From contig MEDY01000144.1 in NCBI GenBank assembly GCA_001724265.1, positions 1 through 63,201 of the forward strand: a stretch of DNA of 63,201 nucleotides, read 5' to 3'. Origin of the DNA: Rhizaria sp. SCN 62-66. Lineage: Eukaryota. The notes beneath the pieces were generated by a model, which worked only from the letters and a program-made list of their open reading frames with translations, was not told the origin of the DNA and did no database searches. This document shows, one piece after another, positions 3,175-60,790 of this stretch (positions are counted from its first letter, which is position 1; each line of letters begins with the position of its first letter). The position numbers and the translations under genes were made by a program.

Positions 3175-3382
3175 GCGCAAGTTGTATGTTTTACGCCAGT
3201 GAGTAACTTGCGGCTTGCGGTACCGTACCGAAGGGCCAGTTGACGTATCCAGATATCAATGTAGAAAAGCCTTGTTTATTTCCCACAATTACAATACAAA
3301 GTACATGTACAGTACAACATGACAGTGAAAACTCAATAACCGTTGACATGTTTTATGATACATGTGGCATCTTAATCACGCC

Positions 3383-4123
3383 TTATTCCGGCTGGTCAGG
3401 ATCATACGCACTCTCAGTCACGGCCGCAGCCGCAGTGCCGACTTCAGTGACAGCATCAGACTCAGCGTCACCAGTAGCCGCGCTTGCACTCGCATTCGGG
3501 GCAATGGGGCGCTCCTTGGCGGAAAGTTTAGCCGCCTTCATTGCGGCCACAGCGCTGCGCTGCTCCTGCCTCGCCTTCGCCCACGCGTTGCCACTTGCGC
3601 CCACACTGCTCACGCCCACACTGCTGGCGCTCGCGCTCGCGTCTGACCCGCCGGCAGCTGTCGCACCGGCTCCATTGCCGCCACCAGTCTCAGCGCTGCT
3701 TGTGACTTGCGCCGGCTTCGCTTGGAACACGAAGCTGATGCGGGCGCGCTGGTCGGGCAAGCTGGCGTACGCTGCGTCAACCTCAGCTGCAGCCTTCTCG
3801 GCAGCCGCCTTGGCGCGCGCCGCCATCGCCTTGGTCGCCTCCAGGCTCGCATTTGCCTGCTTGTCGCCCGTACTTGCAGCGGCAGCGGCGGCGACGGCGG
3901 TGTCGGCAGCGGCCGCGGTCTCGGCGGCAGCAGCGGCCGCCTTGGCAGCCGCGTCCGCCTTGGCGGCGTCCGCGGTCGCCAGCGCGTCCTCGGTGGACCG
4001 GCGGCCGTGCGAGGCAAATAAGCGCAGTGGGAGACGCAGCGGCAGGCAGTGCAGCGGGGGCGGGACCAGGAGGGTCACCGCAGTGCCGGCTGCGTCACCG
4101 CTCTCCGCAGTGACAGTGTAATC

Positions 4124-4155
<32 letters not shown>

Positions 4156-7100
4156 CGTTAGAAGTGCTGCTTGTGGGGCGCAATGTGACTGTGATCACGA
4201 GAGGAGTCGTCATTAACGCCAGCGCAGCGGCCGCAGTCGCTTCTTCGCTCGGCAATAGCAGAGGGTCCTTCGTGGGGTGGCCCTCGCGCACGCGCTTGCG
4301 GCGGGCCACGCGACCAGACTTCGAGCCATCAGCAGCATCGCTCTTGTTCGCGGCGGTGCCGGAGTCGGAGTGGTCAGCGTCAGAGTCGGTGTCGGAGTCG
4401 GAATCGGGCTTAAGCACCTTATTCTTCTGCTTATTATCAGTACTGCCCGCGTTATTCGCACCGCTGCTCTCCGGGTCATTGAACCGGGGCACCGCGGCCG
4501 CGCGCTCAAGCATCTTGACGCTCGCGCCGAACACACTGAGCCCAGTCGCGGAACTGTCATTGGCGCTCTTCAGCGCTGTGTCGCGACGTGACCACGCCTG
4601 GAAGCCTTGGTTCGCTGCAAGAGATGTGACGTTGGTCACGAACGCAGCGCGCTGGGCCTCGGGCAAAGGGACGTGTTTCAGGGTCTCGAGTGTGAGCACA
4701 GTGGTAGTCAGCGGATACGCCGACAAGGACTTCCCGGATTCAGCCGCGCTACTAACAAGGGCAGTGCTGTTGCTCTCTGAATGTGACTGTGAGTATGCGA
4801 AAGGCGAGAGGTTGTACGACTTAAGACGCATCGCAGCGTCAATACCGCAAATAATGCGGCTAAACCTCAAAACACCCGCCTTAGTCTCAGCCACCTCGCA
4901 CACATTCACGTCCGCCTCAGATTCAACAGCGGCACTGGTGTTGCCGTGGTCCCCGCTGCCGAGTGCGACGCGGGAGCGCACGCGCGCGTTGTGCGACTGC
5001 AGCCGGTCGAGCGCGTCCTGTCCCGGCGGCAGCAGCACGACGCGGAGTCCGTACTCGCGGTGGTTGTAGCCAATGCCGAAGCCGTAGCGGCCACCGGCGC
5101 CGTAAACCGCGGCGGGCGAGCTGCTCGCGCCGGCATGGGCACTACGCGGGAGCGACTGTGAGCCGAACACATACTCGGGCGAGAACGCGGAGACCGTGTA
5201 CGGCACAGGCTTAGTGCCGCTGCTCACAGTCATCTTAGTCTCACTGCCCACTTCCTCGACCTTTGCCGACTCAGCCGCGGGGGCGCTTGCGACAACGCGG
5301 CGGAGAGAAGCGGGCTCCGGGGGAACAGTGCCGAAGTCTAAAGCGTGCAACTGGCGGGTCAGAGCGTTCTCGGCAAGAACGACGACGGATTTGATATGCT
5401 AAAATTTACAAGCAAGACAAACGGAAGGCATAGAGCAAAAGAATAAATAATATTTGTGAGAAAAAATTCGAAAAGTAGAAGAGATCGAGAATTTACGAAT
5501 CACAAAATTAGGTTCGACAGAGACATAGCTGTGCACGTACCTGCTTGTTCCGAACCTCGAAGCCGTCCCGGTGGAGGTCCTCGACGCCCCACGCAAACCA
5601 GGGCCCGACGATGACGTCGCCCCAGTACCCCGGCAGACTGTACCGGCCCAGCCCCGCGGCCGCGGCCACGGCGCGGGCCCCGATCGCGGGCCCGCCGCGC
5701 TTGCCCCCAGCCACTGTGGCAAGTCCGGCGTTCATGCGGGCGAAGCCGCCGCTGTACTGACCGTGCGCGCCGCCGCTGCCACCGGCCTCGCCGCTGCTGC
5801 CAGCGGCGGCCGCGGACTCGGCGGATGCCACTGTGCGCACGTGGGTGACGGAAGAGCCATCGAACAACCCGCGCTGCTGCTACTGCTGCTGCTGCGGGCC
5901 GCTGCCGCCGTTGTTCTGGGTCGAGTAGCGCGAGCGCGAAGCCGCGGTGGACACGTCGGTGGCCTCACGGCGCGAGATAAGCGTCGAGTTCGACCACACA
6001 AACGCGCCGCTGCCGGCCGGGACTGCGGCGGCAGCGCTGTTGAGCGCAATAGAGTTACCGCTATCGTGACTTGGCCCTGCACTCGCAGAGCCAGCGCTCG
6101 CAGGCGTAAGGGTGTTACACAGATTAGACTGAGAGAGCGGGTTCTGCTCGCCATTGCGCGCGGTCGCGGGGGTCTTGTTCGTCGGCTCGTCCTCATAGGC
6201 CTGCCCAGTCTCGCGCCAGCGCTTGTAGTTCCACCCGTGCACGACGGAACACGTGCCCTGCAGCCGGAACGTGAGGTCGAAGTCGAACAAGTTAAGCCGC
6301 GAGTCAAAGCGCTGACCCAGATACGCGCGGACACGCGTGTCGCGCAGCTTCGCAAGAGAGAGCACTGACGCGGAGGGCGCGAGGGACGACGACGGGGGCA
6401 GCGCAGCGGGGTTCGGGGTGAAGGGCGGAGGCGGGGGATAATACAGAGGGAAAGGCGAGACGACGAAGTCCGCCGCGTCATCAGCAACCTTGCTCTCAGA
6501 GCTGGCACTCGGAGCTGCCGTCGCGCTCGCGCTAGCGCTCGAGCTTGCGCTCGCGCTGGCGCCAGTCATAGCCTTGGGCTTGGCCACCGTGGTCTTCTTC
6601 GACTTCTTGCGCTTAACGTCACCAGCGGAACTGTCCTCTGTGATAAACAGGCCGAAGCGCGCCATCACACTGGCAGAGTCGCCGTCGTCGTCATCGTCTG
6701 CAGCAGCAACAGCCTGAGAAGCAGTCTTGTCAGAAACAGTGGTCGTAGCATCCGCAACAGACTTACCAGTGCTCTCAGATGTAGCAGCAGGTGTCGTCTT
6801 ATTCTTAGTGTTCACGCTGCCCACCGCGGCTGCACTGCTACCGTGGCCGTCATCCTTGATCGAGCCAGCGCGGCCGCCCTTCGCGTTCGCGAGCGTGGCG
6901 GCTTCAAGCGCAACAACCCGGCGCTGCCACTTGGCCCACCGGGCGCGCTCCTCGCGCATGCCCGCCGACACCATGCGCACAACTCCGGCCCGCCCCTCTT
7001 GGTGCCCGCCCGGCACATGTGCCGCCGCCGCGGGGCCTGTGGTTAAGTCGGGGTCGGCGGTGACGCTCTCGTCGCCGTTGCTCCCACTCAGGCTAGAGCT

Positions 7101-7988
7101 AATGTTCGTAGTGCCGCTGCCGCTGCTGCCGCCGCTGCCGCTGCCGCTGCTGTTGCTGCTGTTGACTGCGGTTGAGATGGTGCCCGCGGCGGCGCCGACC
7201 CAGTCCCTGATCACGGTCGCAAGGTCGTCCTTCTCGCGGCCCTTGAGCCAGGCAACGTCGACGAGCGGCGCGAGCGGGCCGGTCTCCTCCTCGACGAGCA
7301 GCAGCACACGTGGCACAGCGCGCGCGGCCAGGTAGTGGTACTGCGGCCACGTCAGCAGCGCGTTGCTGTGCAGCGCGAGCAGCAAGCGCGCGCGGACCGG
7401 CGCTGAGAGCGCCTCGTCGGTGGCGACCGTGAGCAGCAGGCAGTGGCGCGCCAGCCCCTCTAGAGAGGGCTCCGCGGTGTAGAGCGCAACGTGCTCACGG
7501 TCGGGCTCACGGGCGTCGCTAGGAGCACTCGTGATGGAGGCGCTTGCAGGGGCGATGGCGCGGCGCCAGCGCGGCAGCTGCGACAAGGTGTGAATGGTGT
7601 GGCGGGCGTCGCCAGCGTGGAGCTGGAGCATGTTCAGAGCTGCCGTGGGAGTAAACGAAGTTGCTGTGGAAGGCCCTGCGTTCGTGAGAGAAGAAGCTGA
7701 GGCTGCGCTGCTGCTGCAGTGCGACAAGAGCGCGGTCGCGGAGGACTTTGCTGCGCTCAGATCAACGGTGCCAGTGCTGGTATTGTTGGCTACCGCAGCC
7801 AGATGCGGGGCAAAGATCGCTGTGGCTGCAGCATTGAGTGTAGTGAGGTCGACTGAGGGATGCGTGAAGAGTGGCTGTGAGTCACCTCCGTCGACGTACA
7901 TCCGGTCCAGCAGGTCGACAGAAGGGGAAAAACCCCAGAAGTTGGGGTGCCCAATACCTTCAGCCTCAGACTGGCCGTTAGGGTTCAT
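3383..7988 (-). CDS. DNAAF3: Dynein axonemal assembly factor 3 (PF22-like), ~1487 aa with long low-complexity insertions; exons 7988-5541 and 5398-3383; in-frame TAG at 5882-5880
   Basis: Recalled DNAAF3-family motifs in order: GIGHPNFWGFSPSVDL; LEGLARHCLLL; LKGREKDDL; RVRAYLGQRFDSRLNLFDFDL; YKRWRETGQAY; and, after the TAG, GYWGDVIVGPWFAWGVE...RNKQ|HIKS; LETLKHV. Phase-0 intron 5540-5399 (GTACGT...TTTTAG). Ends in TAA. Confidence 0.85.
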
Positions 7989-8492
7989 TGCAGAAAGACT
8001 TTGACGTGCAAGATCTGACTAAGGGGTGGGGGAAACTGGAGATTGTAGGAGTGTCGAGAGCTCTGCAGAAAAATAGCCAGGAAACAGCATATTGTGAGAA
8101 CTTCAGGGATATAATAAAGTAAATAAGTACAAGCGTCACGATTGCTGATCATATCCATCAGATATCACTATTGACGATGATATGAGCTCTTTATACTCAT
8201 TTGTTGAACGACCAACATTCAAAGTTCGAACCGTTTTTCGTTTGAGCTTCGCGAAGGTGGAGTAGCTCACAGTCAGGAAAAGGCTAATATTCAAGTTGTT
8301 TTCAATCGTGATCGATTGTATTATTGCACCGTTCGTGCATTTATTAATACAGGGACTAAATCTGTTCCATATGAACTTGTTTTTGTTTCTTCATATCATT
8401 ATCATTATTCGCAAATCCTTCATTTCCAAGACTCAACTCTGAGCGCAAACCGCGATCTCAACCTAACATCAGCATCGCACGTAGCCGCAATC

Positions 8493-9428
8493 TTACTTGC
8501 CCTGCGCAGCGCCATCCTTGTTAGCGTTGTTGATCTCCTCGAACACCTCGACCGCGAGCGCCGAGGGCCGGCCCTTGACGTCTGGCGACGCGAAGGCGCC
8601 CTGCTCGCGGTCGCTGCGATCCCTGTGCCCGTGCTTGTTGTCGTCAGCGGAGGTGGGGACCTCGCCCCAGTCGTCGTAGGTCGTGACGGGGTACTTGACC
8701 GCGCTGCGCGGGTCGCAGTATTGCAGCACGCCCGCCTCAGTCATCAACAGCACGCCGCACCGGTCGTAGTAGCTCACGTTGACGCTCACGCCCGCGTAGC
8801 CCGCGTGCGCGTGCTCGTGCGCGTGGCCGGCGTCCGCGGCGGCCTTGCCGTGGCCGCCGGCGTGGCTGTAAGCCGCCGCCTCGCCGCAGCTCGCGCCCGC
8901 GCCGGCGTCGTTGATGCTGGTGATGGGCGTGAAGGTGTGCACCTGACGCACGCGGCCACCCTCGCTGACCGTGATCACCACGGGCGTCGCCGCCGCGTCG
9001 CCGCCCTTGCACGTGTACGGGTGCGGCAGCAGCGGCTGCGCGGTGATGTGCGTGTGCGACAGCGCCTCGTCCTGCGGCGCGCCGCCCACCAGCACGTCCG
9101 TCACGCTGCCCGCCGCGCTGTCGCTCATGGCGCTGACGTTGGGGAGGTGGAACTGGATGCCGCTGGTGCGGACGACGCTGTCGCCCGTCGTCGTGTTAAG
9201 ACGGTACGCAACGCCGCTGCCGTCGGGCGACGGGGTCAGCTTTAGGTACCACACGCGCTCGCCGATGCCGCGAAGGCCCGCGGTGCCGGCGGCGGCCGCG
9301 GCGGCCGCGGCGGTGGCGTCGTTGGTGTTGAGGGGGGAGATGAAGCGCGTGGTGCCGTTCCAGCGGCCGGAGAAAGCGCGCAGGGTGGCGAGAGCGCGGG
9401 AGTTCTGTGTGTTAATGGGCGCAGACAT
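8493..9428 (-). CDS. Hypothetical protein (311 aa), possibly a beta-barrel fold (N-terminal GxW-type motif FSGRWNGT)
   Basis: Single GC-rich ORF from ATG to TAA with AT-rich flanks and strong third-position GC bias. The fold suggestion is weak inference. Confidence 0.7.
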   Translation of the reverse strand: MSAPINTQNSRALATLRAFSGRWNGTTRFISPLNTNDATAAAAAAAAGTAGLRGIGERVWYLKLTPSPDGSGVAYRLNTTTGDSVVRTSGIQFHLPNVSAMSDSAAGSVTDVLVGGAPQDEALSHTHITAQPLLPHPYTCKGGDAAATPVVITVSEGGRVRQVHTFTPITSINDAGAGASCGEAAAYSHAGGHGKAAADAGHAHEHAHAGYAGVSVNVSYYDRCGVLLMTEAGVLQYCDPRSAVKYPVTTYDDWGEVPTSADDNKHGHRDRSDREQGAFASPDVKGRPSALAVEVFEEINNANKDGAAQGK

Positions 9429-10351
9429 GACGCGAAAGGGGTACTCTTGTACTGTAGAAGAGGGGGTGTACGAATGGAGAGGGCGGAGCAGGCAGGAAAG
9501 AGTGAAAAAGTGTGAGGGGAGGGTCAGGAGAAATTAGCGGATTATGTACGTTTAGTCAAGGCTGAACGAGAGAAACGCAGAGTCATGTAAAATAGAATGG
9601 TGTTTTAATAGAAGTCCATTCAATACCAAGGCTATCTGCACTTGTATCATGGCATAGTGCAGACAGATAGCTGTTGTAGGTAGGGCGTGCCACGTGGGAT
9701 AGTCAAAACTAGAATCTACACCGATAAGTGAGCAAATTCAGGAGCGGTAAATATATAAAAATAGAACATAATAGAATGCTATCGCGCTAGTCTGGGCGTG
9801 TTGGTGTCATTTGGACTTGACGATCTGATCACGAAGGATCATGACGGGAATGTCAGTCGTTAAGCCCCTTTTTCGAGAATCTTCTGGAAGTGTCCTCGAT
9901 CGCAACATCGGCCTGCATACAAGCCGCGCTGCGGTATGTGTGCAGATATAACGCATCTTGAAGGAAACTCAAAGTAGTGATAAAACTCACTCATTTGCTG
10001 TGAATTCAAACGAAGACTAAGACACTGTGTGGAACTGTAGTGAACGGATCATCCTCGATGCATTTGTTGCTCTTCAAACGGGCAGGATCCAAACTTGTTT
10101 GTGGTGGACATCAAATAAAAGCAGACGCCATATGTAAAAAAAGCATCTTTAATCGAGTTATAAAAGAATATGCACTTTGACGACCGTGTGAAGCCAATTA
10201 TTAGCGTTAAAATAAAGAACAGTGTATAATCGTGGAGAAACCAACTTGAATAAGGAAAATTGCACGACCAAGAGATTGCCGATAAACCTTGGCAACCATC
10301 GCTATTCGAACTAGATAACACACAAGCACACAGCGCATCACATTGTCGCTA

Positions 10352-13300
10352 TTATATGTCGGAGAAGCCACGCTTTCCAGATGTGCGAGAAGCCTGCGTC
10401 ACAAACGCCTCGAACAACTGCGCCACAGCATTGCCACCGCCCGCGCCGGAGGCAAAGCCTCCATCTGCAAACGCGCCGGTGAAGCCCTGCAAAGACGCGC
10501 GCAAACCCGCCGGCTGGCGGATGCCGAGCACGCCCGCCTTAATGGCCGCCTTGCGCAGCACGCTGCGCGGCTCGCGTCCGGCGCCGCCCGCCCCGACAGC
10601 GCCTGCCGCGGGCTGACCCGCATAGTCGTTGTCGTCGTCATCATCGTAGTCGTCGTCGCTGCTCAGGTAGCCCGCACCTACGGCCCCTTCGGCGGTGTCG
10701 TCGTCACCCATGTAGCCCGCGCCTGCGCCAGCACCGGCACCGAGACCGGCATCGGCGGCAGCGCCCGCGGCTGCGGCCGAGGCGTCGCGAGCTGCGGGCG
10801 CGCCCGGTTGGGCGGCCTTGGGGCCCTTCTTCTTGGCCTCGACCAGGCCCACCACGGCGGCCGTCTCCGCCGCCGCCTCGGCCGCCGCGCGCGCGCGCAT
10901 GCCCGACGCAACGGCGAGCGCGGACTGCGACGCCGCCAACGCGGCCGCGGCCGAGACTGCGGCCGCGACGGCGACGAGCGGCGGCGCGGCGTCGGTGTTG
11001 GTCGCCGCCGCGCCGCTGCTGACGGGGAAGTCGAACACACAGCGCTTGGTGGCGTAGTCCACGACGGCGAGGCCCGCGCAGCCCAGCGCGGGAAGCGAGA
11101 GTAGCCGTGCCAGCGCGGATACACCCAGGTCGAACCACTGGTCCGCGGAGGGCAGCTCGTCGTTTTCGGCGGCTTTCCTGGCCGCGGCCTCGACGTACGT
11201 GCCCGCGAGCGCGGCGGCGAGGGGAACGGCGTGGTGCGTGGTCCGCAGGAGCAGCACATGGGGCCGCAGTAGCGCCGCGAGCAGGTCCAGCGTGACGGTG
11301 GCGGCGGGGAAGCCCAGGCCCGTGAGCACGGCCAGCGACGGTAGCGGGGCCGGCAGCAGCGCAGGGTAGCTGCGCTTGTTGCTGAGGTACGCGTGGGCAG
11401 CCGTTACCAGGACGCTGTGGCTGAAGGCCGCGCTGGGCAGGGTCAGGGCTGAGGGGTGCTTCGCTGAGACGGTGATGACGTCAGCAGAAGAGCCGTTTCT
11501 AGTGTTGTTGTGAGACGCGCGAGCCTGCTGCTGTTGCTGGTGCTGCTGCTGTTGATAGCGCTGCAGCTGCAGCTGCTGCTGGTGCTGCTGGTGCTGCAGC
11601 ATCACGTCCTCGCTCTCACTGCGTCCGCGGCCGCTAATGTTGCCGCCGCCGTCGGCGCTGGGGCTGCCGACGACGACCGGGGCACCGCCCTGCTGCGCTG
11701 CGGACGCAGCCGCTACAACCACATCCGCGTCGGAGCCGGAGTCAGTCTTGGATTCCTTGTAGTACGCGCCATACAGCGCGGGCACCTTGACCCCGGCCGC
11801 CGCGCTCGCCGCAGAGTCGACTTTGTCGCTCACTGCGGCCGCCGCAGCCAGCACAGCCGCGCGCAGAGCAGCCGCGGCCTCCGCCGCCGCAGCCGCGCCA
11901 GCCGCAGCCGCCGCCGCAGCGGCCTCATCGGGAGTGCCGTTGCCCGCCCTGCCGGCCAGCGCGGCCGCAGTGGCGCCCGCAGCGGTAACCGTCGCCAGCG
12001 ACAACGCCGCGCTGCGGCCGTGTCCGTGCCCTTGGCCGTGGTTGTACCCATGGCGGTCCGCACCACCCTTGGCCTTGAGGTTGACCGGCAGCAGCGTGGA
12101 TTCGTGCGGCAGCAACACCGCCAGCACGGCCGCCGTCGCGCGTGCCTGGTGGCGGATCTCCCGCGTCTTCGCGGCCGCCTCGGCGACGGCGGCGGCAGTG
12201 GCGGCGGCGGCAGCGGCAGGGTTCCGCGCGGCGGCCGCAGCTAACAAGCTGCTGTCGGCAGCGTCGCCCGCCTTGGCAGCAGCCACAACAGGCGGCTGCA
12301 GCGTCAGCACAACCGACACGCAGCGCCACGCGGCCTCGTACTCGCCCAGCGCCAGCGCGCAGCGCGTCGCGGCGGCGTACGCGGCCACGGCGGCGGCCGC
12401 GGCGGCGGCGGCTGCGGAGGCGGGGACCGCGGCCTCGGAGACCAGGAGCGGTTTGTGCAGCGTCGCGCTCGCCGCGCCGGCCCCGCCGCGGGCGCCGTCG
12501 CGGGGCGGCGTGTACGGCGGGCATGGGAAGCACACGGAGCCAGCAGAGCCAGCGCCAGAGCCAGTGCCAGCGCCGTTAGAGCCGGAACCAGAGAGGCCCG
12601 TGTTGACAAGTGGGGTGTAAATAGACGTGAAGAGCGGAGATACCGTTGCGATGGCGGCCAGGGCAAGGCCGGGGTGGTTGCAGCGGTGGCTCTGGAGCAG
12701 GAGCAGCGCGTGCGCGGGCGAGAACGGCACGGCGCTTGAGTTGGAGCTCGAAGAGCTTGCTGCAGCGTTAGCTGTTGCGGCTGCCGATGCTGACGCTGGT
12801 GATGTGAGAGAAGCGTTAATGTTCATGGCGGTAACAACAGTGCGGGTAAACACGAGCGTGTCGTGGGGCGTGACGCCGCAGCCATAGTCAGTCGCAACGC
12901 AGTCGGCGGTAGCGCTCGCGTTGGTGATGCCCGTGCTTGCGAGCTTGCGGGTGGGCAGCAGCAGCGCGGAGCAGACGGAGGCGTGGAACGCAAGCGCCGC
13001 GGCGGGAGACGCGGCAAGGGCCCCGGCAAGCGCGCGTGCGGGCAGGATGCGGGGCACCACGGTGGTGAGCGCGAGCGCGAGGGCGGCGCATGAGGCAGAT
13101 CCCGCAATGAGGCAGTAGACGAGTGCGGCGAGGCTGTGGCCTGCGGAGGCCAGAGTGCGCACGTTGTCCGCAAAGTCCGCGGGCAGCATTCCGACATAGT
13201 GCGCAGACTGCTGGGAAGTGGACGCGGACGCTGATGCGGAAGCACACGCGGCTGAGGAAGCCGGGAGCAGGGAAGGGAAGGTCGAGGCGCAGAGAGAAAC

Positions 13301-13366
13301 GAGGTAGCGGTCTGCAGCGTGCTCCTCAACAAAGCGCGGAAAGTCTCGCGTTAAGTCAAATGACAT
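10352..13366 (-). CDS. Hypothetical Ala-rich protein (1004 aa) with a poly-Gln tract
   Basis: Intronless ORF from ATG to TAA that fills a GC-rich block between AT-rich spacers. No family motif recognised. Confidence 0.75.
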   Translation of the reverse strand: MSFDLTRDFPRFVEEHAADRYLVSLCASTFPSLLPASSAACASASASASTSQQSAHYVGMLPADFADNVRTLASAGHSLAALVYCLIAGSASCAALALALTTVVPRILPARALAGALAASPAAALAFHASVCSALLLPTRKLASTGITNASATADCVATDYGCGVTPHDTLVFTRTVVTAMNINASLTSPASASAAATANAAASSSSSNSSAVPFSPAHALLLLQSHRCNHPGLALAAIATVSPLFTSIYTPLVNTGLSGSGSNGAGTGSGAGSAGSVCFPCPPYTPPRDGARGGAGAASATLHKPLLVSEAAVPASAAAAAAAAAVAAYAAATRCALALGEYEAAWRCVSVVLTLQPPVVAAAKAGDAADSSLLAAAAARNPAAAAAATAAAVAEAAAKTREIRHQARATAAVLAVLLPHESTLLPVNLKAKGGADRHGYNHGQGHGHGRSAALSLATVTAAGATAAALAGRAGNGTPDEAAAAAAAAGAAAAAEAAAALRAAVLAAAAAVSDKVDSAASAAAGVKVPALYGAYYKESKTDSGSDADVVVAAASAAQQGGAPVVVGSPSADGGGNISGRGRSESEDVMLQHQQHQQQLQLQRYQQQQHQQQQQARASHNNTRNGSSADVITVSAKHPSALTLPSAAFSHSVLVTAAHAYLSNKRSYPALLPAPLPSLAVLTGLGFPAATVTLDLLAALLRPHVLLLRTTHHAVPLAAALAGTYVEAAARKAAENDELPSADQWFDLGVSALARLLSLPALGCAGLAVVDYATKRCVFDFPVSSGAAATNTDAAPPLVAVAAAVSAAAALAASQSALAVASGMRARAAAEAAAETAAVVGLVEAKKKGPKAAQPGAPAARDASAAAAGAAADAGLGAGAGAGAGYMGDDDTAEGAVGAGYLSSDDDYDDDDDNDYAGQPAAGAVGAGGAGREPRSVLRKAAIKAGVLGIRQPAGLRASLQGFTGAFADGGFASGAGGGNAVAQLFEAFVTQASRTSGKRGFSDI

Positions 13367-13962
13367 TTGCTACACAAATCCTCACCAGCAAGGTGGTTGT
13401 GAGCGACTACAATAAATAATATGAAGGTGAAAGGCGGTTGGAGGAGGTGAGAGGGTTGTGCTGACCACAAGAATTTGTAACTCGCGTGTCAAATGAAATA
13501 CGGCGCGGAATACAACATGTTAGAGCAAATATAAAATCAGAATGCAATAGACACTAGCGGCACAGTATCGGGGTTTGCTAAACAGAGCTTCAGGCGGATC
13601 GTATGAGCCTACAGGTTGCTTGATTTTACCAGCACACTCCCAAGGATCAGATCCGCTCCTCGACCATGCGTACCGAAAAAATGTCGCGGTTGACTGCAGT
13701 AATCGGCAAGCAGTTCGCGCCATCGCTATGTATATCAAATGCAGCTACCAACATCCGTTGATAGTAATACGCTTGTGTGACCTGAATATATATTCCTTAT
13801 TTATTTCTGCCACTCAAATAACAGTTCTAAAAACACCCTCTAACCTTTCAAAACCTTTCCCAAACTCAGTCCCTAAACGAGCCAAGCCACTCGCTCCTCC
13901 TGCGATCCCTCTGAACCGTCTGGAGAGTCCCACAGCTTCTGAACTTCGCGCACAGGCCACAA

Positions 13963-16900
13963 ATGGCGAGCGAAGCGCCGCCTATGGCCATGTCCGATGC
14001 GGACCTGCCTTCCAAGCACTTCGTTCCGACCCACGCGGCCGACGACGCAGTCGCATTCGAGCAGAAGCTCGAGCAGCCACTCAGCAATCAGCTGCCCGTC
14101 CAGCCCCAGCAGTAGCCCCCCACCCAGGAGGCGTTGCCCAAGGCTGCACCGGTTACGGGATTTGCGTTTGCCGCAGTTACGGGTTCTGTGCCGCCTGAGC
14201 TCCCGGCAACGGCGTCCTCTACCGCCACAGTCGCCACAGCTCCCGCATTCAGCGCCGTTGACCCCAACTCCGTCGCTGGCGCTGCCCCTGCGACGCCGAC
14301 GGCGGACGCTCATGTCAAGTATGAGTCAAGTGCCCACGCCGATGCTACGCCCACTGAAGCCGCGTCCTCGGCCGCAGACCTTGTCTCGCCGCAGTCGCCG
14401 CCGCAGGTTGAGACAGAGGCAGATGCAAACGTGGATGAGACGGCGCCCCAATCGTCCCCGCGAGGCGGCGGCCGCGGGCGCGGGCGTGGCCGTGGGCGCG
14501 GGCGCGGGCGCGGGCGTCCCCCGGCCGACGCGCGCGATGACGGCGGCGACGGCGACGGCAGCAGCCCGGCCGCGAGCGACTCGCACTACCAGGCCGCGGC
14601 GGCCTCTGCGGCGGCTGCGCGCGCGGCGGCGGCCGAGGAAGCCGCGCTTCGCGCCGTGCTACAGCCGTCGGAGCTGTACACGATCACGCCCAAGATGTTT
14701 CGCCACGGTACGCTGCCGGCCGTGATGCCGCTCGCGCTCGCCCGGCCCGTGGGTGCGCCCGAGCCGACCGCCGTGGCCGAGGCAGAGGCGCCCGCGCTCG
14801 CTGTGCCGGCCACGGTCGCGGGCGCGATCCCGCTCGTCGCGGTACTTGTCGCAAACGCGGTCGCCGCCACTGTCGCTGACCCGACGCTCTTCGCAGACGC
14901 CTCCTCGGGCAGTGCGGCGAGTGCCAGTGGCGAAGACAAGGACGGGGACGAGATTGACTGGCAGCGCGTTGCCGCCGCCTACGGACGTGCTGCTGCTGCT
15001 TCGTCGCAAGCCCGCGCATCCCTTGCTGCTGGTGCCACCACGGACGCGGACGCAGACGAGCTGAAGACGCTGTTTCCACCCAGCCTGACCCCGCGCGAGT
15101 GCAAACGCGTCTGGCGCGCTGCCGCATACGTTGCAGTGCCTAAGCTGCAGACGAACACGCTTTTCACGACTGCGGACGCGGCCTATACGCCCCGGTACAA
15201 GCCCCTGCGGCATTCGCCGTCACAATCGTCATCTCAGCCGCAGTTTCAGTCGCAGTCTCAGCGCTTGCAACGACCGTGCCAGTGTGTGACGGGCATGCGG
15301 ACGCTGCCGCTGACTGCGGGCGCAAGTGCGTTCGCGATGCGCGAGTCCTCCTCGGGGCCTTGTCTGCTCACACCTGGTGCGCTGCCCTGGGGCGCCGGCG
15401 CCGCCGAGGCCGCGGCCGCGGAGGTCGAGTACGCCAACATGGCCGCCCACGCGCGGCGCGTGAACTATGTCAAGAAGCGCAACATCTACAACGTCATTGG
15501 TGGCAACAAAAGCGGCGGTGCCAGTAGCGCGCGCGGCGCCGCAAGTCAGAACGGCGCGGTTAGTGCAGCCGAAAGCAGCCCTTTGAGCGCGAACGGTGAT
15601 GCTTTGAGTGCGAGCGCTACGGCCGCAGCTGTTGACTCGCATGCTGTTAGTGCCAGTTCTCCGCATGCAACGGGCAGTGCCAGTGGCTACGGTGATGGGA
15701 TCGTCGTGAAGACGACGGCGTACAGCACTGACGCCGTGTTTGACTTTAACTTTGCGGAAGCCAAATCTCTTCAATCACTTGTCAAGCCTGCGGCGACGAT
15801 TGACAGTACACTGGCGACAACAAACAAGAAAGGTGGCAATACCACGTGCTCGCTTTGTGGCTGCCTTCGCACTGGCGGCGCTGCCAGCACGACTGCGGCA
15901 ATGACCGACGACGCCGCGGCGAAAGACAACGCCGGCCACGACGGCAGCGAGAGTGACGGCGACCTTTCTGACTACGAGGCCCTGCTCCCCGAATACACGC
16001 CCCCGGAGGCGCTCGAGCCGCACCTGCGCGCCCCGCTCGAAGACGCGGACCCCACGCCAGACAAGCCGGACGCATGCGCCCTCGGCGCGGCGACCACGCT
16101 CACGGGCGCGAGCAGCAGCACCGTGCGCGCGCAGGTGACGAACCCCTTCACGCCGCTGGGCTTCGCCACACTGACACACGCGGCGCCGTCGCCGCTGGCG
16201 TACCTGCCGCGCGCCTCCGTGGACATGTTCCTGCTCGACCTGCAGTCGCGGCCGACGGTGCCCGACCGCATCGCCGCGTGGACCGACGCGGGCTCTGCCG
16301 CGGCGGCAACGAATCATACGGCGGCGCAATCTCCTCCTTCTGATGCCGCTGCAGCTGCTGCGGGTCACAGCGAAAGCTGTCGCAGCGGAAACAGCACTGG
16401 GCGCACTCCGGCGGCAGGCCGGTCCGCGGCCGCGGCGACCGCGCGCGCGATGTGGGTCGTTGCCCGCGCGGCCGCCAACGGCGACAACAGGCTCCCGCAG
16501 GCGCTGGTCAATGCGCTGTCGACGCACAGCAACAGCAGCAGCAACAGCAAACCCGCGGTTAAGAGTGCGGATGGCGCGAGCCCCAACGCTGAGTCAGCCG
16601 GCGCAAGCTCCGGCGCTTGCACCAGTGCAGGCGTTGATGCGAGCGAAAGCGTGAATGCGAGTGCTAGTGATGCTGTGGTCGGTACTGTGGATCTTGCCGA
16701 CGTGGCGCCCGCCGCCCCCGCCACGCTGCCGCCGCTGACTACGCTGCCCATCCCTTTGTTCGGCACGAGCAGTAACAACAATAAGGCCAGCACCACTCAC
16801 GCCGGTCCGAAGTCCAGTGCGAGTGCGAGTTCTGCCAGCTCTGCGACGGAGGGTGACGAAGACGTGACTGTGAGCAATGTCGTGAACATGATGAACTCGC

Positions 16901-19900
16901 TGTCACTGACGCTGCTGGCCAAGGCGGCGCGGAATACCAAACACGCGCTTGTGAACAAGACGCCAAGTTGTATGTCTGACGATGTTGCAGACGCTAAAAA
17001 CACCAGCAACGCCGCCGCAAGTAGAAGCAACAAAAAACCTTGTGCGACAAATGATATGAGTGGCTGTATCACAAGCGGCAGCGGCAGCACGAGTATCGCT
17101 GCCTCCTCCGCGGCCGCGATCAAGTCTACCTTCGCCCTTGGCCACGCCCGCATGCGCATGCAACTTGCACACAACGCATCCAGCGTTCCTTCCCCTGCGT
17201 TGTTTGAGGCCGGCGACGTAAAGTTAGGTCGCACCTCGAAGGCCGCGCGGGTGCTCACTGCGGCCGCGCCAGCCCTGGCAGGCGTGTGGAAGAAAGCAGC
17301 ATCTGCTGCTGCTGCTGCGGCTGCAAATACGACTGATTGTGCAACGAACAACAACAGCAACAACAGCAATGTTTGCAAATCTAGCACGGATACGAGCACT
17401 CGGGACTCAAGTGCCAGCGCCAGCGATTCTACAAGCACAGTGCTGCCTGGCGGTATGACGTGGAAGCAAGCGACGCGTGAACTTCTCTCGAGTGTGAACA
17501 CCACATCGTACAAGGCTCAAGCCGCGCTGTCGTTTCTGCTCGCTCTCGAGCAGGGCCACGTGGCTGCCCACGCTGTGCTCAAGCTTCACCGCATCATCGT
17601 GGCAAAGGAGCGCGCACACCGAGCATCGTTGCGGCGCAACGTCGATCACGCTGTATTGACTGGTGACAAGGCGCACCATGCGCTGCAGCTGGACGAGAAT
17701 GCTTCAATCGAGGCCGCTGAGGCCGCGCTTGAAGCGATCTTAGCCACGCCCAATTTGCCATCGGTCGCTAGTCCTGTTGTCCTCTCGCTCGCGGGCTACA
17801 ACAGCGCCTCACACCCCGGTGAAGATGGCAGATTCACCGCAGACTCGTGGCCGGCGCCGCCGCCACACCGCAAATCCCTCTCGCCCGCCGCCGCGGAGAA
17901 ATCCGCCGTGCAAACGCTGCGGCGCGTTGTGACGGCGGCCGCCGCGGGGCAGGGGCGCTGGCAGGTGGCGCAGCGCGCCGCGTTGCAGGTGCATCTCACT
18001 GCGCTCGAGACAGTGGGCAATGCGGCACACGGCCACTTCGAGGGCCTCGGGGACGAGGCTACGTCTCGGTGCCCGCCGAAGGACGCGCTGTATGCGCTGC
18101 GGCAGCAATTGGCCGATGTGGGGCGCAGCACGAACGCGCTTGCCTCTGTCATGTCGAACCATGCTGTTAACACGAAACCGTACAGTTTGAGCACCATCGG
18201 GTTGAATGGGATTGAGACCGTGGTGACCGCGAGCACCGGGACGAAGGACGTTCTAAGCGTGATGAAGACGGCGCAGTTGGCGATGCATCAACACACGTGC
18301 GGCGATCACACCGCCGCAGCTATCGATGACATGCCATGCGGAGATAATACCGCTGTTCTCAGGTCAGGCAGTGCCGGTGCCAGTGATAATACTGATGGCA
18401 CCGCAAAAAACACGAACTCTGCTGTGAACCACCACTCCGGGGTGGCTGACGAAGAGTCAAAGTCTCTCGCCTCACCCGTGCTATCGAAACGTGATGCTAT
18501 GGTGACCGCAGCCCTTGTCATGGGTGCTGCTGCCGCCCCTCTTGCCCCCAGTTTCAACAAGAACAACAAACTGGGCGTGACTGCGAACGGCTCTGGCAAC
18601 ATGGAATCCGCCCTCGCCGGCAACATCCCCATTCTCCCCATGCTCGAGTGGCAGCGCCAGTGTGCGCTCGCCCGCTGGCAGCACGCGCTCGCGCTGGAGG
18701 CGCGTACGCAGGCCGTCAACATGGCAGTGCGCCGCCGCATGCAAGCCGTGACGACGGCGACTATAGCCACCGCCACGCGCAACGCGCTGACCGCGCAGGC
18801 CCAGGCACACGCACACGCCCAAGCGCAGGCTGAGGCGCGGCTGCAGGCAATGGCGCTTGCGCGCAAGCAGGCGCAGGCACAGGCTGATGCTGAGGCCGCA
18901 GCGGCAGCGGCAGCAACTGTTGCTGCCAAGCTCGAAGTTGACGCCGCGAATGCTGCGCTTGAAAGCACAGACGTTGCTGCTGTCGATGCTGATGCTTCTG
19001 GTGTTGCTGCTGGTGTCGATATCAAGCCCAAGACCGAAGCCATGACCGACGACATCGAGGTCACAGCGGTTGCGGTCTCCGCCAACTCAGTTGCAGGCCC
19101 GTCTCTGAGTGAGATCACGGTCAAGTCTGAGCCCGGGACTGCGCCTGCCCACAGCAGTGCTGTTGCTACTCCTATCAGCAGCATCGCTCCTGCCTCTAGC
19201 TCTCGCCGCACCTCTGCTGGCGGCAGCAACAGCCGCATCAAGTCGGAGCCCCTCAGCACGCACGCCAGCGGCATTGGCGCCAACTCCGCCCCGGCGCCGT
19301 CACCACAGGCTTCACCTGCGCCGCCCGCGCCGGCCCCGCTTCACCCCGGCGCGAGCGAGCTGGCCGCGCAGATCTGGTTCGAGGCCAACGCCGAGGTCGG
19401 GCCCGTGCCCGCGCTGCGCCTGCCGCCGCGGCCCGACCTCGCCAAGCTCTCCACGGGCGCGGCGGAGGTCGCCGTCGCGCACGCAGTCGCCACAGAAACG
19501 GCCGTCGCGCTGCCCGACGCCGACAACCTTTGCGCGTCGCAGCCGCCGCAGCAGAAGCGCGTGGAAGGCAAGCGGGGTAAGACGATCAAGACCGACAACA
19601 ACAACGGCGGCGGATCTCGGTCTACCTCTCCCGTGCGGCGCAACGCCTCCGCGTCCGCATCTATGCGCAGCACGCCCGTCAAGAAGGGAAAAGCGACTGT
19701 CGATGCGTCGGGTGGCCGGGGCAAGGGCAAGGGCGCTGCGCGCAGCGGCAAGCGGGGCAAGGCTGAGTCTGCTCCGAAGACTGCGGCTGACGCTGCTCAG
19801 GGCCGCGGCAGGGGTAACAAGCGGGGCCGCGTCGCTGCTGGTATGCAGGCGGCAGGCGACAGCACCAACGCTGCTGAGGATGGTGATGGCGCTGCTGGCG

Positions 19901-22900
19901 GAGCCAGCGACAGTGACGACGACAGCGCTGACGACGATGGCGACATCACCGACGGCAACAGTGGTGACGACGACGATAGCAGTGTCAGTGGTAATGACAG
20001 CGACGGTGATAACGCCAAGGAGCCGTCACTCCCGCCCAAGTACAGTAACATGGCGCGTTCTCAGTCGAAGTACCCCTCAAAGCCCAACCCTTCTCTCCCC
20101 ACTTTCGACCTCTATTGCTTGCCTCTTGAGGACACGCTTGCCACATATCCTCCCGTTCCCGGTACGTAACCACTCCAACGTAAACTATCTCATTTGAAAC
20201 ATCACATCTGATCTCGGACTTTGCATTTGATCTCATAATATCTCTTTATTACTGCGTATTGTCGTTGCTCTCCTGCATTACTTTCCTTCAGGTGGCTTGT
20301 ATTTCTCGCGCCTACGCCGCGCCGCGGGTCTGAGACTCTCGGCGACCTACCCCGCTGCTGCGCTCCCACCCCCGGCCACCGCGAGCCTGTCCCGCGCCGC
20401 CCTCACGCTTGCTTCCGCGCGCCTGTTGCCGGCGCTCGGCGGCCGTCTGCGCGCGCCGGCCCATGCCTCGCTTGCGCTCCCACTGCCCGTTGCCGCCCCG
20501 CTGGCGCCCACGACGGCGCTTCCGGCCCCTCTGGCCACAGCGCACCTCCGCGCGGTCCCGCTCGCGGCCTCGAACTCGGCGCTCTCCGCGATCGCCGCCA
20601 CGGCCGCCGGCGGCGCTGGGTCCGCATTCCAGGGCGTGGGCCCCGGCGGCGGCGCGGGCGCCCTGGGCGGCGCCACCGCGTTGTCTTGGTCCGTCTCGGC
20701 GCCCGCGTCATCGGTGTCGTCGGCCGCGCAGCTGGCGACGGCGGCGGCGACGGCGGCGGCGACCGCCCCCGCGACGGCCGTCGCCGCCGTGTCGGCGCTC
20801 CACGACGCGATGGCCATGCTCAACAGCATGGCCTCGCCCCAGACCACGATAGCCGCCAACGGCGCGGCCTCTGCGCTCACGGGTGCGGGCGCAGGCACGC
20901 AGAGCTCTGGTGCGCCGACAGTGACGCAGGTTATCTACGGCGGTGGCGTCGCCACGCCCGTCGCCATGGCGCCATACACCCCGCAAATGTACAACTCCGG
21001 ACCCAAAGCTACCTCAGGCAACATCGCCGCCGTGGAGGAAGCCGCCGCGGCCAACGCAGTTGTTGACAGCGGTCGTATCGGCGTCACTGGCTTGTGGGAC
21101 GGCATCGCGCCGCCGCCGCAGGTCGCGGCCGGAGCCTCCGCAGCGGCCGCGACCAACGCCGACGTGGCCAAGATGAGCGCAGCGGCGCTGGCGGCGTTGC
21201 CGTCAGTCGCCGTCGCCGCGATCATGCCGCCCGTGCTCACGCTCGCGCTCGGCGAAACCGGTGGTGGTGCGAAAAAGAGCTCGAACAAGAGCGAGAGGAA
21301 GAATGGCGAAGATGACACTGATAACGAGGGCGAAGACGATGAAGCTCTTTGGATGGCGCGCTTTGCTGCCGCAACGGACTATCTCGCGTCGCTCGACGAG
21401 GCGTGGGACTGCGTCAAGCTCAGCCGCATGCTCCTCTGCCTCCGTCTACGTCTTCCGACTACAGCGGCGGCCGCGGCGGCGAGCTCGAGCCTGCTGCTGC
21501 ACCGGCCGGACGCGCCGTCGCTGGCGCCGTCTCCGCACGCGCTCATGCTCGCCCCCGCGCCCCAGTCGAGCTCGTCCGTCTCGGTCGCCGGCACAGGCTG
21601 CGTCGCCACCTCGAGCGCGGGCTGCGTGCTGCTCACGTCCTCGCTCGTGCCTTTCTCGGCCACGCCGTTCGCGTCCGTGTCGACGGGCCCACTGGGGCTC
21701 TACAGCTCATCGCTCGCCCACGCGGCCGCCTCAGCGCGCGGCGCTGGCGCGGCCACGGGCGTCACCAGCGAAGCGCGCCCGATTCCGCCGGCAGTCACGG
21801 CGCGGCACCGCGGCTGGGTCGCCACGGCGCACGCGGACGCCCTCGCTGCGGCCGCGCTGAGCGTCTCGGCCGGCGAGGTCGCAAACATGCTCCGGCTGCA
21901 GAGCGCTGCCGGCGCGGCGGGCGCGGCGGTGGCGGCGGCGGCCTCTGCGGCCGCGGCCGCCGCGGTGACCGGAACGGCCCGCACCCGCGGCGGCGGCAGC
22001 GTCGACAGTTACGGCCACACGATGACGGACTCTGAGCACGTGCACGGCGCGGCGCAGCACGGAGGCAGCTTTGCCGCCGATGCACCCGCTCCGTCCGCGG
22101 TCGTTGTGCCGGACCTCACGACACTGCTAATGGCGCAGGGAGCGAGTCCAGCGCAGCTGCAGTTCAACGTGCGGCAGCCGGCCGTCACGGGCGCAACGCT
22201 GCGCGGCGGCAGCAACATGTACTACCCGTCGGTGGTCGCTGCAAGCTGCGGCAGCAGCAGCGCGGCCTTGACATCGGCAGTGACGACTACCACAACGACG
22301 ACCACGACAACGACGACGACAACGACCTCATCGCCTGCATCTCGTGTGTCGCACTCTTACTCCCAGTCACAGTCGCAGACGCAGTCCATGCAGTGCGACA
22401 TCTCCGCCGGCAACCCGGCCGCGTCTCTCTCGGTCACATCCGGCCTCGTTGGCCTCGGCCTAGGTGTCGGCGCCGGCATCGCCGTCCCGCCTTGTCTCGC
22501 TCTCTCGGCCGCGTCGGCCAACGACCCCCCCGCCGCGGCCGCTGCCGCTGCAATTGCCGCCGCTCTGCCAGCGCCGTTCGCTTGCTCTGGCGGACCGAAC
22601 AGCGCCAGCGGCGTCGCTGCCCCGGGGAGCGCGGGCGCTCTCAGCAGCGGCGTCACGTCAGTGGACATGTCGCTCCACGCGCAGCTCACTGCCGTGTCTG
22701 GCGCGGCCCCGTTCGTGCCTCTCGTCGGCCCGCACTTGCACTCACACTCACATGCGAGCCAGCACGCGGCCGCTTCTGCGGCTGCTGCTGCTGCTGCGGC
22801 CACCAACACCGCCAACGCTGCGGCCATCAACGCGGCCAACGTCGCCGTGTCTGCCGCGACGACCGCGACGACTGCCGCGAGCGTGCGCGTGGTGCTCGGC

Positions 22901-23431: not shown

Positions 23432-23943
23432 TTCAAAGGCTCTTTCAGTTTCATTGAAGTGAGAAGTGCGTCTGTGTGTCTTTCATTTACATTTTTAATC
23501 TTGGTGATGTGATTGTTTTGCGCTCTCGTCCTTGAGCGCTGCATCTCGTCTTCAGTGATATTAGTAGTCGAGCAACTGGCAACACAGGCTAGTGGCGAGA
23601 AAAGGGGGGGGAGCAAGGGGTAGAACCAAAAACCAAAACTTAACTAGAACATTCCAACGTCAATATACAGATAACTCATCATTTTTACACCTTAATAGGC
23701 TCTATTTTAATATCTATTTTTGTTGTCTTTGACATTGCACATATGAGTGGATCTAGGCTTGGATACTTCTCACAGCCATCCTCCTTCGTCATTTCCCAAC
23801 TCCTCACTCCGGCTCTCTCTACAGCTTCAAGAAAGCGGTACGATATTGTCACCAAACAGTGTGCCTGAGCTTTTCAATAGTGGCAAGCGACACATTGTTT
23901 TGGTTTCTCTCATCTCGCCTGAACTAGGCTCTGGCAGGCCCTC

Positions 23944-40182: not shown

Positions 40183-41007
40183 TTACGCCTTCTGGACGGG
40201 GAGGAAGAGCTTGAACTCCGGGGGCAGCTCCTCCTCAGAGTACAGACGGTCGCTGAAGTAGATGCGGCGGATGCGGCAGTTGGCGTGGATCTGCACGCGC
40301 AGCGTCTCGATGTAGTTGGTGCCGTAGGCGCGGCGGGTGAAGTCGGAGAGGTTGAACTGGATCTGGTTCCAGCCGTCGTCGAGGCGCATCGGCATGGTGC
40401 AGATGAAGGGCTTGACGCGCGTCGTCGTCTGGTAGTTGCTCGCGCGGAAGCGGCGGCGCACATCCTTGTCGTCAAGCACCTGGACCTCGAAGGTGAAGTA
40501 CTTCTTCATGTTCTTGATGATCATGACGAGGAACGGGAGCTTGATGCCGAGCGTCTTGCTCTCGTCGGCGGGGCACGTGATGAACGTCGTGCTCACGTTG
40601 GTGCCCGCGATCTCGATCACGGACGACTGCACGTCCTCATCGGTGATGCGCTTAATGTGACCGTTGCGGACTGTGAAGTACATGGAGCGTCGAGTGAAAC
40701 GAGTACAAGTTAGAGAACAAAAGAGACGTGAGGTTGTGAAAGCATGTGAACATCTAAACAAGTGACAAGGGGCGTGATATCGTGCGCAAATTCAGAATCA
40801 GAATTGCGACCATAAATAACACACAATAGTGCAACACTAAGACAATGGATATGCCGGGGGAGCGCGATGGACGAGCAGAAGAAGAGAGTAACTAGAAGCG
40901 GATTGCGGAGCGTGCAACGTACCCTGAGCATCCCAGATTTGAAGGGGCTTGCTGCCAATGCTGTAGAGAATTGACAGGAAGCCCGACTGGTAGGTGTTTT
41001 TGAACAT
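40183..41007 (-). CDS. CFAP20: Cilia- and flagella-associated protein 20 (BUG22), 190 aa; exons 41007-40923 and 40670-40183
   Basis: Spliced sequence [44 protein letters not shown]...[29 protein letters not shown]...[23 protein letters not shown] closely matches the recalled CFAP20 consensus. Phase-1 intron 40922-40671. Ends in TAA. Confidence 0.97.
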
Positions 41008-57100: not shown

Positions 57101-57594
57101 ATGTCTACTCCCAAAGGAAAAGGCAATGCCTCATCTTACAATGTCATTAATGGCTCCGAGTATTCCCGTACGTATCTTCATACCTCCTTCAAAACCTTGT
57201 CATCTCTTTAACCCGGCGAGAATGCCAGACGCCGCCTCACTTCTTTACTTGGTTATGTCACTGTCTCATCAACAGAGCAAGCTCTGCACACGGGTCGCCG
57301 CGTGTACACCTCAGAGACCTCGCGTTCCCACTTTGAGCCGGGCGCGATGACCCCTGCGCGCTTCGCGGCCCCCTCCAACGCGCAAAACACGCCCCGCACC
57401 GCCGGCAACACCCCCGCGCACGTCGCGCGCAACGGCAACAACTCCCACGGCGTCACGGCCACCTTCGCGGCCTACTCCCCCGCGCCCTCGGCTCCCGCGT
57501 CCGCCGCGAAGCCCCGCCCCGCGGTTGGCGGCGCGTCCATCGGCGTCACGGCTGCGATGGGCGGCAGCGTTGCAAACACCCCCGTCCATAACAA

Positions 57595-57628
<34 letters not shown>

Positions 57629-60600: not shown

Positions 60601-60790
60601 CGCCAACGCGGGCGGCCACGCGAGCGCCGCGAGAGAGAACGTGTACGGCTCCGGCGCCGCGAGTAGCCGCAACGCGACCCCGGTTAAGGTGGGCGAGAAG
60701 GCGGGCTACAAGCCGCTGTTCAAGCCCGTGTCGGCGTGGCGCGTGCAGAACGGCGCCGTCGTCAACGTCGCTGCCAACGCAAACGAGTAA
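57101..60790 (+). CDS. Hypothetical Ala-rich, probably disordered protein (~1147 aa) with short recurring motifs; exons 57101-57167, 57276-59166, 59305-60790
   Basis: Two frame-preserving GTACGT...AG introns (57168-57275, phase 1; 59167-59304, phase 2). Ends in TAA. Confidence 0.75.

Follow-up and report, generated by a model that had tools for sequence, protein, structure and literature searches.

The window analysed here, a contig of 63,201 nucleotides (MEDY01000144.1, deposited as Rhizaria sp. SCN 62-66), comes from an uncultured, GC-rich (~63%) eukaryote of wastewater and bioreactor metagenomes. Its minus strand carries a gene identified by its domain architecture as a homologue of the axonemal dynein assembly factor DNAAF3, in a frame that is open from 8018 to an intron except for one stop, a TAG codon at 5882-5880. 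An earlier note, made from the sequence alone, had proposed that this TAG is read as glutamine (Gln). The gene is laid out as follows.

5541-7988, minus strand: DNAAF3 exon 1, from ATG 7988 to the last CAG before the donor, 816 codons including the TAG (delimited by the start of database protein P0001, MNPNGQ, by the intron and by alignment)
7353-7667, minus strand: match to DUF4470 (PF14737), residues 118-222 of the translation from 8018, E 6.1e-08
6189-6371, minus strand: match to DUF4471 upstream of the TAG, profile positions 26-87 of 303 (upstream piece alone, E 1.5e-17)
5874-5894, minus strand: (CAG)4 TAG (CAG)2 run, read as QQQQ?QQ
5880-5882, minus strand: in-frame TAG codon, identical in two metagenome contigs (X4 and X1) that run across it
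5541-5645, minus strand: match to DUF4471 downstream of the TAG, profile positions 111-145 of 303, containing GYWGDVIVGPWFAWGVE (piece 5531-5879 alone)
5399-5540, minus strand: DNAAF3 intron of 142 nt, GTACGT...TTTTAG, AT-rich, phase 0, with its GT at 5540 and its AG ending at 5399
3383-5398, minus strand: DNAAF3 last exon, 671 codons plus TAA at 3385-3383, with blocks HIKSVVVLAENAL and VLTLETLKHVPLPEAQ aligning to orthologues and coding-type codon bias

The read-through translation matches DUF4471 (E 2e-24, 86.9 bits) and DUF4470 (E 6.1e-08, 33.1 bits), against Pfam cut-offs of 25. Both domains stand in the order typical of the DNAAF3 / PF22 family of axonemal dynein assembly factors, and on this sequence evidence the gene is a DNAAF3 homologue. 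Conserved blocks lie on either side of the TAG in the same frame, YKRWRETGQAY...SNSTLIS upstream and GYWGDVIVGPWFAWGVE downstream. Taken alone, the 116-residue downstream piece (5531-5879) stays under the 25-bit cut-off, with 21.3 bits and E 1.8e-4, yet it is colinear. When 1.84 billion representatives were searched exhaustively with HMMER, 193 proteins came up at E <= 0.001. P0001 (702 amino acids, ending at the TAG) and P0002 (110 amino acids, with a GTG start after the TAG) are gene-finder halves of the window's own DNAAF3, P0003 is a fragment of a relative with 71% identity, and the nearest full-length relative, P0004, is a metagenome protein of 825 amino acids in one open frame. A 256-residue piece across the TAG gave nothing at E <= 1e-5 in a protein word index limited to lengths of 140-448, and a word-index search whose 8,000 candidates were filled by low-complexity words returned only the window's own 702-residue product.

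Alignment with 11 orthologues places the TAG within a lineage-specific low-complexity insert of ~130 residues, between the PN.TL.S and RGYWGD blocks. Homology continues beyond it into exon 2, where the block beginning VLTLETLKHVPLPEAQ aligned to all 11 orthologues compared. Across 87 orthologues, 54 columns show the same residue in 80% or more of the sequences, and the window keeps 43 of them (36/44 before the TAG and 7/10 after it), including a family-invariant D and P downstream of the TAG; the RGYWGD..SP motif is likewise kept. P0003 stays in frame from 8 codons after the TAG site, through indels of 15 and 2 residues. The read-through product, whose alignment to orthologues the earlier note had suggested as a check, is colinear with 87 orthologues. 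It differs from other DNAAF3 in its internal TAG and in its length, 1,487 residues versus ~450-550 in most orthologues, being extended by Ala/Ser/Gly/Gln-rich inserts.

In the predicted structure of the orthologue P0007 (model m37d7e5956b42; predicted local distance difference test, pLDDT, 85.5; predicted template-modelling score, pTM, 0.84), the point equivalent to the TAG lies between strands 201-208 and 212-219, and six more strands follow downstream. Judged from this model, a product ending at the TAG would have an incomplete core sheet. The model resembles class I S-adenosylmethionine (SAM)-methyltransferase folds in alignments that span residues 1 to ~445, with 2vdu_E as the best structural match (Z 10.5, root-mean-square deviation 3.1, 152 aligned). 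Nearly all of the top 50 structural entries are SAM-dependent methyltransferases (Z 9.1-10.5 over ~125-150 residues), and the strands of P0007 that match them come from both the DUF4470 and the DUF4471 halves.

On the minus strand, positions 5900 to 5862 read GGC CCG CAG CAG CAG CAG TAG CAG CAG CGC GGG TTG TTC, letter for letter as the earlier note gave them. The probable source run (X1) shows 0 differences over 4165-7107, and a contig from an independent DNA run of another study (X4, record 11) shows 0 differences over the 735 nt of 5633-6367. No other letter and no indel at 5880-5882 was seen in any of the four runs compared over 3300-15000; these comparisons use assembled contigs, in which a rare or minor allele could stay hidden. 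The C at 5882 that the earlier note had named as a refuting allele is, at this contig level, absent. Because the independent contig is identical and another letter appears in no run, TAG 5882 is a real base and assembly error is excluded. At least part of a 1.1-kb stretch around the TAG is contained in 11 rows from 7 studies, among 15 runs listed; the samples are from bioreactors, wastewater and activated sludge, and the studies date from 2015-2025. A metagenome scan returned 1 locus (L001), from the same organism, which is identical over 3,230 nt (5659 to 2430) and ends short of the TAG. Contigs of a polyA metatranscriptome (X6) flank the TAG at 6431-6731, 5369-5819, 4958-5258 and 4318-4556. 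The second of these (record 26) runs unspliced through the DNAAF3 intron, for which a retained intron, pre-mRNA or DNA carry-over are possible explanations, and several intergenic bins have an X6 depth of 0, a hint of real RNA.

Coding signal continues past the TAG. We used a codon log-odds score trained on 8,807 codons of other genes, with the three genes that contain an internal TAG (see below) left out. Windows in the true frame average 0.297 per codon and those in wrong frames -0.331. The segment from TAG to donor scores 0.223, a value reached by 5/410 wrong-frame windows, and exon 2 scores 0.275, reached by 2/410. Open codons after TAG 5882 number 113 + 671, with no second lesion seen. 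Among 897 wrong-frame stop-to-stop runs, 91 reach 113 codons and none reaches 671. At 113 codons an open frame alone is weak evidence, and coding there is backed by homology and codon bias.

The canonical intron that the earlier note had placed downstream of the TAG has GT/AG ends, and its splice junction, ...FEVRNKQ|HIKSVVVLAENAL, matches ...FERRQGQHIRSVVVVSEAEVL in P0004; at the level of protein sequence, homology validates the intron at 5540-5399. P0003 reads V-R directly after NKQ, as GTACGT would. The last exon, given before as 672 codons, was confirmed as 671 codons plus TAA over 5398-3383. All eight introns delimited in the window start with GTACG (7/8 with GTACGT), are AT-rich and measure 120-190 nt amid exons of 65-75% GC.

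~2222-2393, 5399-5540, 20162-20290, 33150-33296, 37070-37190, 37480-37627, 44738-44870 and 59165-59305: introns delimited in the window

The GTACG donor consensus is unusually rigid and could mark contigs when this organism is binned, along with ~63% GC and a word depth of ~34-36x in X1. On the minus strand no GTACG occurs between 7898 and 5541, and no AT-rich island lies near 5880. The sole nearby GTGAGG (GT at 5968) would give introns of 86, 89 or 92 nt to neighbouring AGs, none of them in frame. TAG 5882 cannot be removed by any intron of the local style. Because homology and codon bias extend beyond the TAG, where a homology-validated intron follows too, full-length DNAAF3 requires that the TAG be decoded; termination there would, as the earlier note had argued, truncate the protein, with the loss of much of a conserved domain.

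To survey the window, we scanned for every stop triplet with 50 stop-free codons on each side and scored both sides for coding. Five stops were coding-like on both sides: TAG 5882, TAG 14113 (plus strand), TAG 31461 (minus strand), TAG 11055 (plus strand) and TGA 59210. TAG 11055 was dropped, being antisense to the gene at 10352-13369 in a frame full of TAGs. TGA 59210, considered as TGA = Trp, was rejected since it sits in an AT-rich GTACGT intron. That plus-strand intron (59165-59305) preserves the frame, the open reading frames (ORFs) 57212-59212 and 59213-60790 being in the same one, and with one in-frame TGA it mimics TGA read-through. Two further internal TAGs were retained.

14113-14115, plus strand: second in-frame TAG, in CAG CCC CAG CAG TAG CCC CCC, 50 codons downstream of ATG 13963, with 2017 open codons behind it
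31459-31461, minus strand: third in-frame TAG, in CGC CGC TAG ATG AAC of a TPT-family transporter gene, with 595 codons before it and 271 after

ATG 13963 (CACAA ATG GCG) comes right behind an AT-rich island; the in-frame ATG that follows it lies 194 codons past TAG 14113. The segment between ATG and TAG (13963-14112) has a codon score of 0.316, reached by 5/850 wrong-frame windows, and an independent contig (X5, 12819-14292) carries the TAG unchanged. At the third site, the 595 codons before TAG 31461 carry the end of the TPT transporter domain, and the 271 codons after it score 0.314, reached by 1/410 wrong-frame windows; 10/897 wrong-frame runs are that long. This TAG abuts an ATG (TAG ATG, 31456-31461), so that the standard code would give two abutting genes with no spacer. 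No AT-rich island is present there, unlike at every other gene boundary in the window.

No in-frame TAA or TGA with coding sequence on both sides was found outside introns, TGA 59210 and TAA 44775 both lying in AT-rich GTACG introns. Once ORF ends inside introns are removed, 17 gene ends remain, 13 with TAA, 4 with TGA and none with TAG. TAG makes up 195/897 of wrong-frame stop triplets, and its absence from 17 ends has a rough chance of ~0.015. GC content in the 150 nt downstream is 0.34-0.45 after all 17 gene ends versus 0.57-0.73 after the three internal TAGs.

The context of the TAGs favours glutamine as the residue inserted. Two of the three directly follow CAG CAG. Over 13,193 coding codons, 16.6% of Gln codons have another Gln codon just before them, versus 0.9-4.9% for other residues, a likelihood ratio of ~10-20-fold for Gln over Leu, Glu and Tyr (0.166 versus 0.039, 0.035 and 0.049). 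On these grounds, and with a probability that we put at roughly 0.55, UAG is a sense codon in this organism, probably Gln, with UAA and UGA as stops. TAG 5882 would then be translated instead of ending the gene, and the organism would read UAG as an amino acid, most probably Gln, while ending genes with UAA (mostly) and UGA. The CAG-to-TAG change in the Gln run would be synonymous and the DNAAF3 of 1,487 residues would be made. Presumably a Gln-charged tRNA of anticodon CUA would be responsible, and/or an eRF1 blind to UAG; which residue is inserted, and how far the code change reaches across the genome, we likewise infer.

Such a code would have close parallels. In Iotanema spirale, an anaerobic gut fornicate known from its transcriptome, UAG encodes Gln, and gene ends comprise 104 UAA, 15 UGA and 0 UAG (Panek et al. 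2017, PMC5304391). The window resembles it in having internal UAG only, UAA as main and UGA as minor stop and UAG never as terminator (13/4/0 here), and in both cases in-frame UAA/UGA candidates turned out to be intronic. It differs in being genomic DNA of a GC-rich wastewater eukaryote. Two phyllopharyngean ciliates, Hartmannula sinica and Trochilia petrani, also use UAG for Gln (McGowan et al. 2024, PMC11687900). As here, UAG and UAA are uncoupled, with UAA as the fixed preferred stop, and the data are genomic only; here, however, they come from a 63-kb multi-gene contig of ~63% GC with GTACG introns of 120-190 nt. The rhizarian exLh and the phyllopharyngean metagenome-assembled genomes (MAGs) from TARA likewise reassign UAG alone and keep UAA as stop, to Leu there, whereas the context here favours Gln, putatively. 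Our literature search, which did not cover all journals, found no report of UAG reassignment in a wastewater eukaryote or in a GC-rich non-ciliate one.

Several observations weigh against reassignment. TAG accounts for 3/412 putative Gln codons (~0.7%, beside 409 CAA/CAG) in the 13,193 coding codons, and the sample is one 63-kb contig of ~20 genes, in which the conserved genes CFAP20, alanine aminotransferase, DEAH helicase and DLIC have no TAG. All three TAGs lie in lineage-specific low-complexity segments, 0/3 at a conserved (Gln) alignment column. With strict short windows only 5882 passes the both-sides test (1 TAG at W=25 and W=35). The CAG CAG context is equally expected if the TAGs are plain CAG-derived nonsense changes: random C-to-T nonsense in a CAG-rich genome would yield TAG in ~70% of events, as estimated from codon counts, and three TAGs with no TAA or TGA would be expected from such changes with a chance of ~0.35. 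No listed X6 RNA contig crosses 5882, the nearest (5369-5819) ending before the TAG, and the 63-kb window holds no eRF1 gene, no tRNA gene (ARAGORN) and no Rfam match. The comparison with known cases points the same way. Iotanema has 204 UAG in 126 genes, with Gln at 22/28 hyperconserved UAG positions (PMC5304391), unlike the 3 TAGs in ~20 genes and 0 at a conserved position here; and in Hartmannula and Trochilia UAG makes up 18.5-31.8% of Gln codons and occurs in ~80% of genes (PMC11687900), a widespread sense use that the ~0.7% found here does not match. Of the earlier proposal that TAG is Gln, what stands is that the TAG sits where CAG is expected; a TAG at a conserved Gln column is missing. 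That the change from CAG is synonymous gains from the two further in-frame TAGs and the 0/17 TAG gene ends, and loses from the 3/412 usage and from a rival in leaky read-through.

Under that rival the code is standard, the TAG is a premature stop derived from CAG, and read-through of a few per cent by near-cognate tRNA-Gln makes enough DNAAF3 for the allele to persist. Site 5882 reads exactly Q Q Q Q stop Q Q, and its +4 letter is C. In a yeast preprint (Leslie et al. 2026, PMC13192750), nonsense codons in the Gln-rich domain of Snf5 give ~5-7% full-length protein and wild-type growth, ~1.6-3.6% is seen for UAG/UAA in engineered QXQ contexts, the residue inserted is Gln and the mutant gene stays functional; the Gln-flanked stop in a Gln-rich low-complexity segment is common to both. 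The rarity of TAG (3/412) and its confinement to low-complexity segments also fit tolerated leaky stops. The yeast alleles, however, are low-efficiency (~2-7%) laboratory ones under the standard code, whereas the window has three natural sites, of which 31461 (R R stop M N) lacks Gln context and 14113 has Gln upstream only. Three such alleles in ~20 genes, fixed across studies of 2015-2025, would be many for an organism with the standard code, and TAG is absent from gene ends, which leakiness leaves unexplained. If UAG termination were weak in general, the code would in effect be ambiguous and grade into reassignment. We regard a leaky stop under the standard code as a serious rival, if a rather unlikely one. 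That UAG is sense but encodes Leu, Glu or Tyr is less probable again, and we consider it distinctly unlikely. Two lineages, the rhizarian exLh and the phyllopharyngean ciliates from TARA, are documented to have UAG = Leu with UAA as stop (PMC5304391 and PMC11687900), and no TAG of the window aligns to a conserved column; but the CAG CAG context of 2/3 TAGs favours Gln by ~10-20-fold, and CAG to TAG is a single transition.

The remaining explanations deny that the TAG is decoded or that it exists in the message. If this were a null or decaying copy, translation would end at 5882 after 702 residues, the function being lost, dispensable or covered by another copy. The gene caller did output the 702-residue form (P0001), and the 71%-identical P0003 could be a paralogue instead of an orthologue. 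Decay is nonetheless hard to reconcile with the lack of a second lesion, the 113 + 671 open codons with the bias of true coding sequence (0/897 wrong-frame runs reach 671), the intact splice sites and the 7/10 highly conserved downstream columns kept, the invariant D and P among them; two other genes would also need the same breakage. We judge it decidedly improbable. It is very unlikely that the TAG never meets the ribosome, through an unrecognised intron or RNA editing to CAG. The TAG does lie in a 130-residue insert absent from orthologues, and TAG and CAG could act as acceptor sites. All 8/8 introns, however, are AT-rich, begin with GTACG and span 120-190 nt, with neither GTACG nor an AT-rich island nearby, and the introns from GTGAGG (GT 5968) are all out of frame. 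Codon bias over the segment is of the coding type, the protein is conserved in P0003 from 8 codons past the TAG, and among the joints listed none spans 5882. As for a sequencing or assembly error, assemblies do tend to go wrong in trinucleotide runs, but the source runs and an independent study (X4, 735 nt, 0 differences) have the same contig sequence and no indel or other letter is listed, leaving that chance negligible.

Other features of the window bear on the organism. The earlier note had pointed to an intact CFAP20, which was found at 40791-40183.

40183-40791, minus strand: CFAP20 main exon, ending in TAA, CFA20_dom E 5e-79

Because CFAP20 is present in the window, the organism builds cilia. 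Compared with solved structures, CFAP20 yielded 8 near-tied hits, and the Atlas identified the aminotransferase as a eukaryotic alanine aminotransferase, its phyla being mixed. Most long ORFs (for example 14116-20169 and 23923-29190), like DNAAF3 (3383-7988, minus strand), are swollen by Ala/Ser/Gly/Gln-rich low-complexity inserts, and Pfam gave no match for five ORFs of 1,005-2,017 residues. A 63-kb, multi-gene, GC-rich layout with GTACG introns is unlike ciliate macronuclear DNA. A genome scan with CFAP20 returned 1 locus (L002:10001-10615), on an unrelated AT-rich contig. It lies in a 20.6-kb stretch of 23% GC within CAXXVR010000009.1, a 1.72-Mb record titled 'MAG: uncultured Desulfobacterium sp.'. 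Its CFAP20 is 67% identical to that of the window, has in-frame stops at Gln positions of the query (DEGWN*I*F versus DDGWNQIQ) and is interrupted by short inserts. The locus looks like eukaryotic, ciliate-type DNA with TAA/TAG = Gln under a bacterial name.

Nuclear codes in which UAG has changed and UAA is still a stop are few; Iotanema, the rhizarian exLh and three phyllopharyngean ciliate lineages are named in PMC5304391 and PMC11687900. If true, reassignment here would be a further independent case, in a GC-rich multi-gene wastewater genome, and a data point on the separability of UAG and UAA. In practice, gene callers that use the standard or bacterial code split such genes, as they did DNAAF3, whose halves of 702 and 110 amino acids stand in the database as separate proteins. 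The very low TAG usage could reflect an early or ambiguous stage that is lost from established cases. We tentatively suggest, as a possibility against which the odds still lie, that this GC-rich, non-ciliate, cilium-bearing protist belongs to a lineage early in UAG-only reassignment, with UAG gone from gene ends and reappearing as Gln. UAG, at ~0.7% of Gln codons, would be returning chiefly through change of CAG to TAG within Gln runs. Were this so, the organism would offer a natural snapshot between the loss of a stop codon and its capture as a sense codon, and the reassignment would be proceeding against GC pressure, not under the AT pressure usually invoked.

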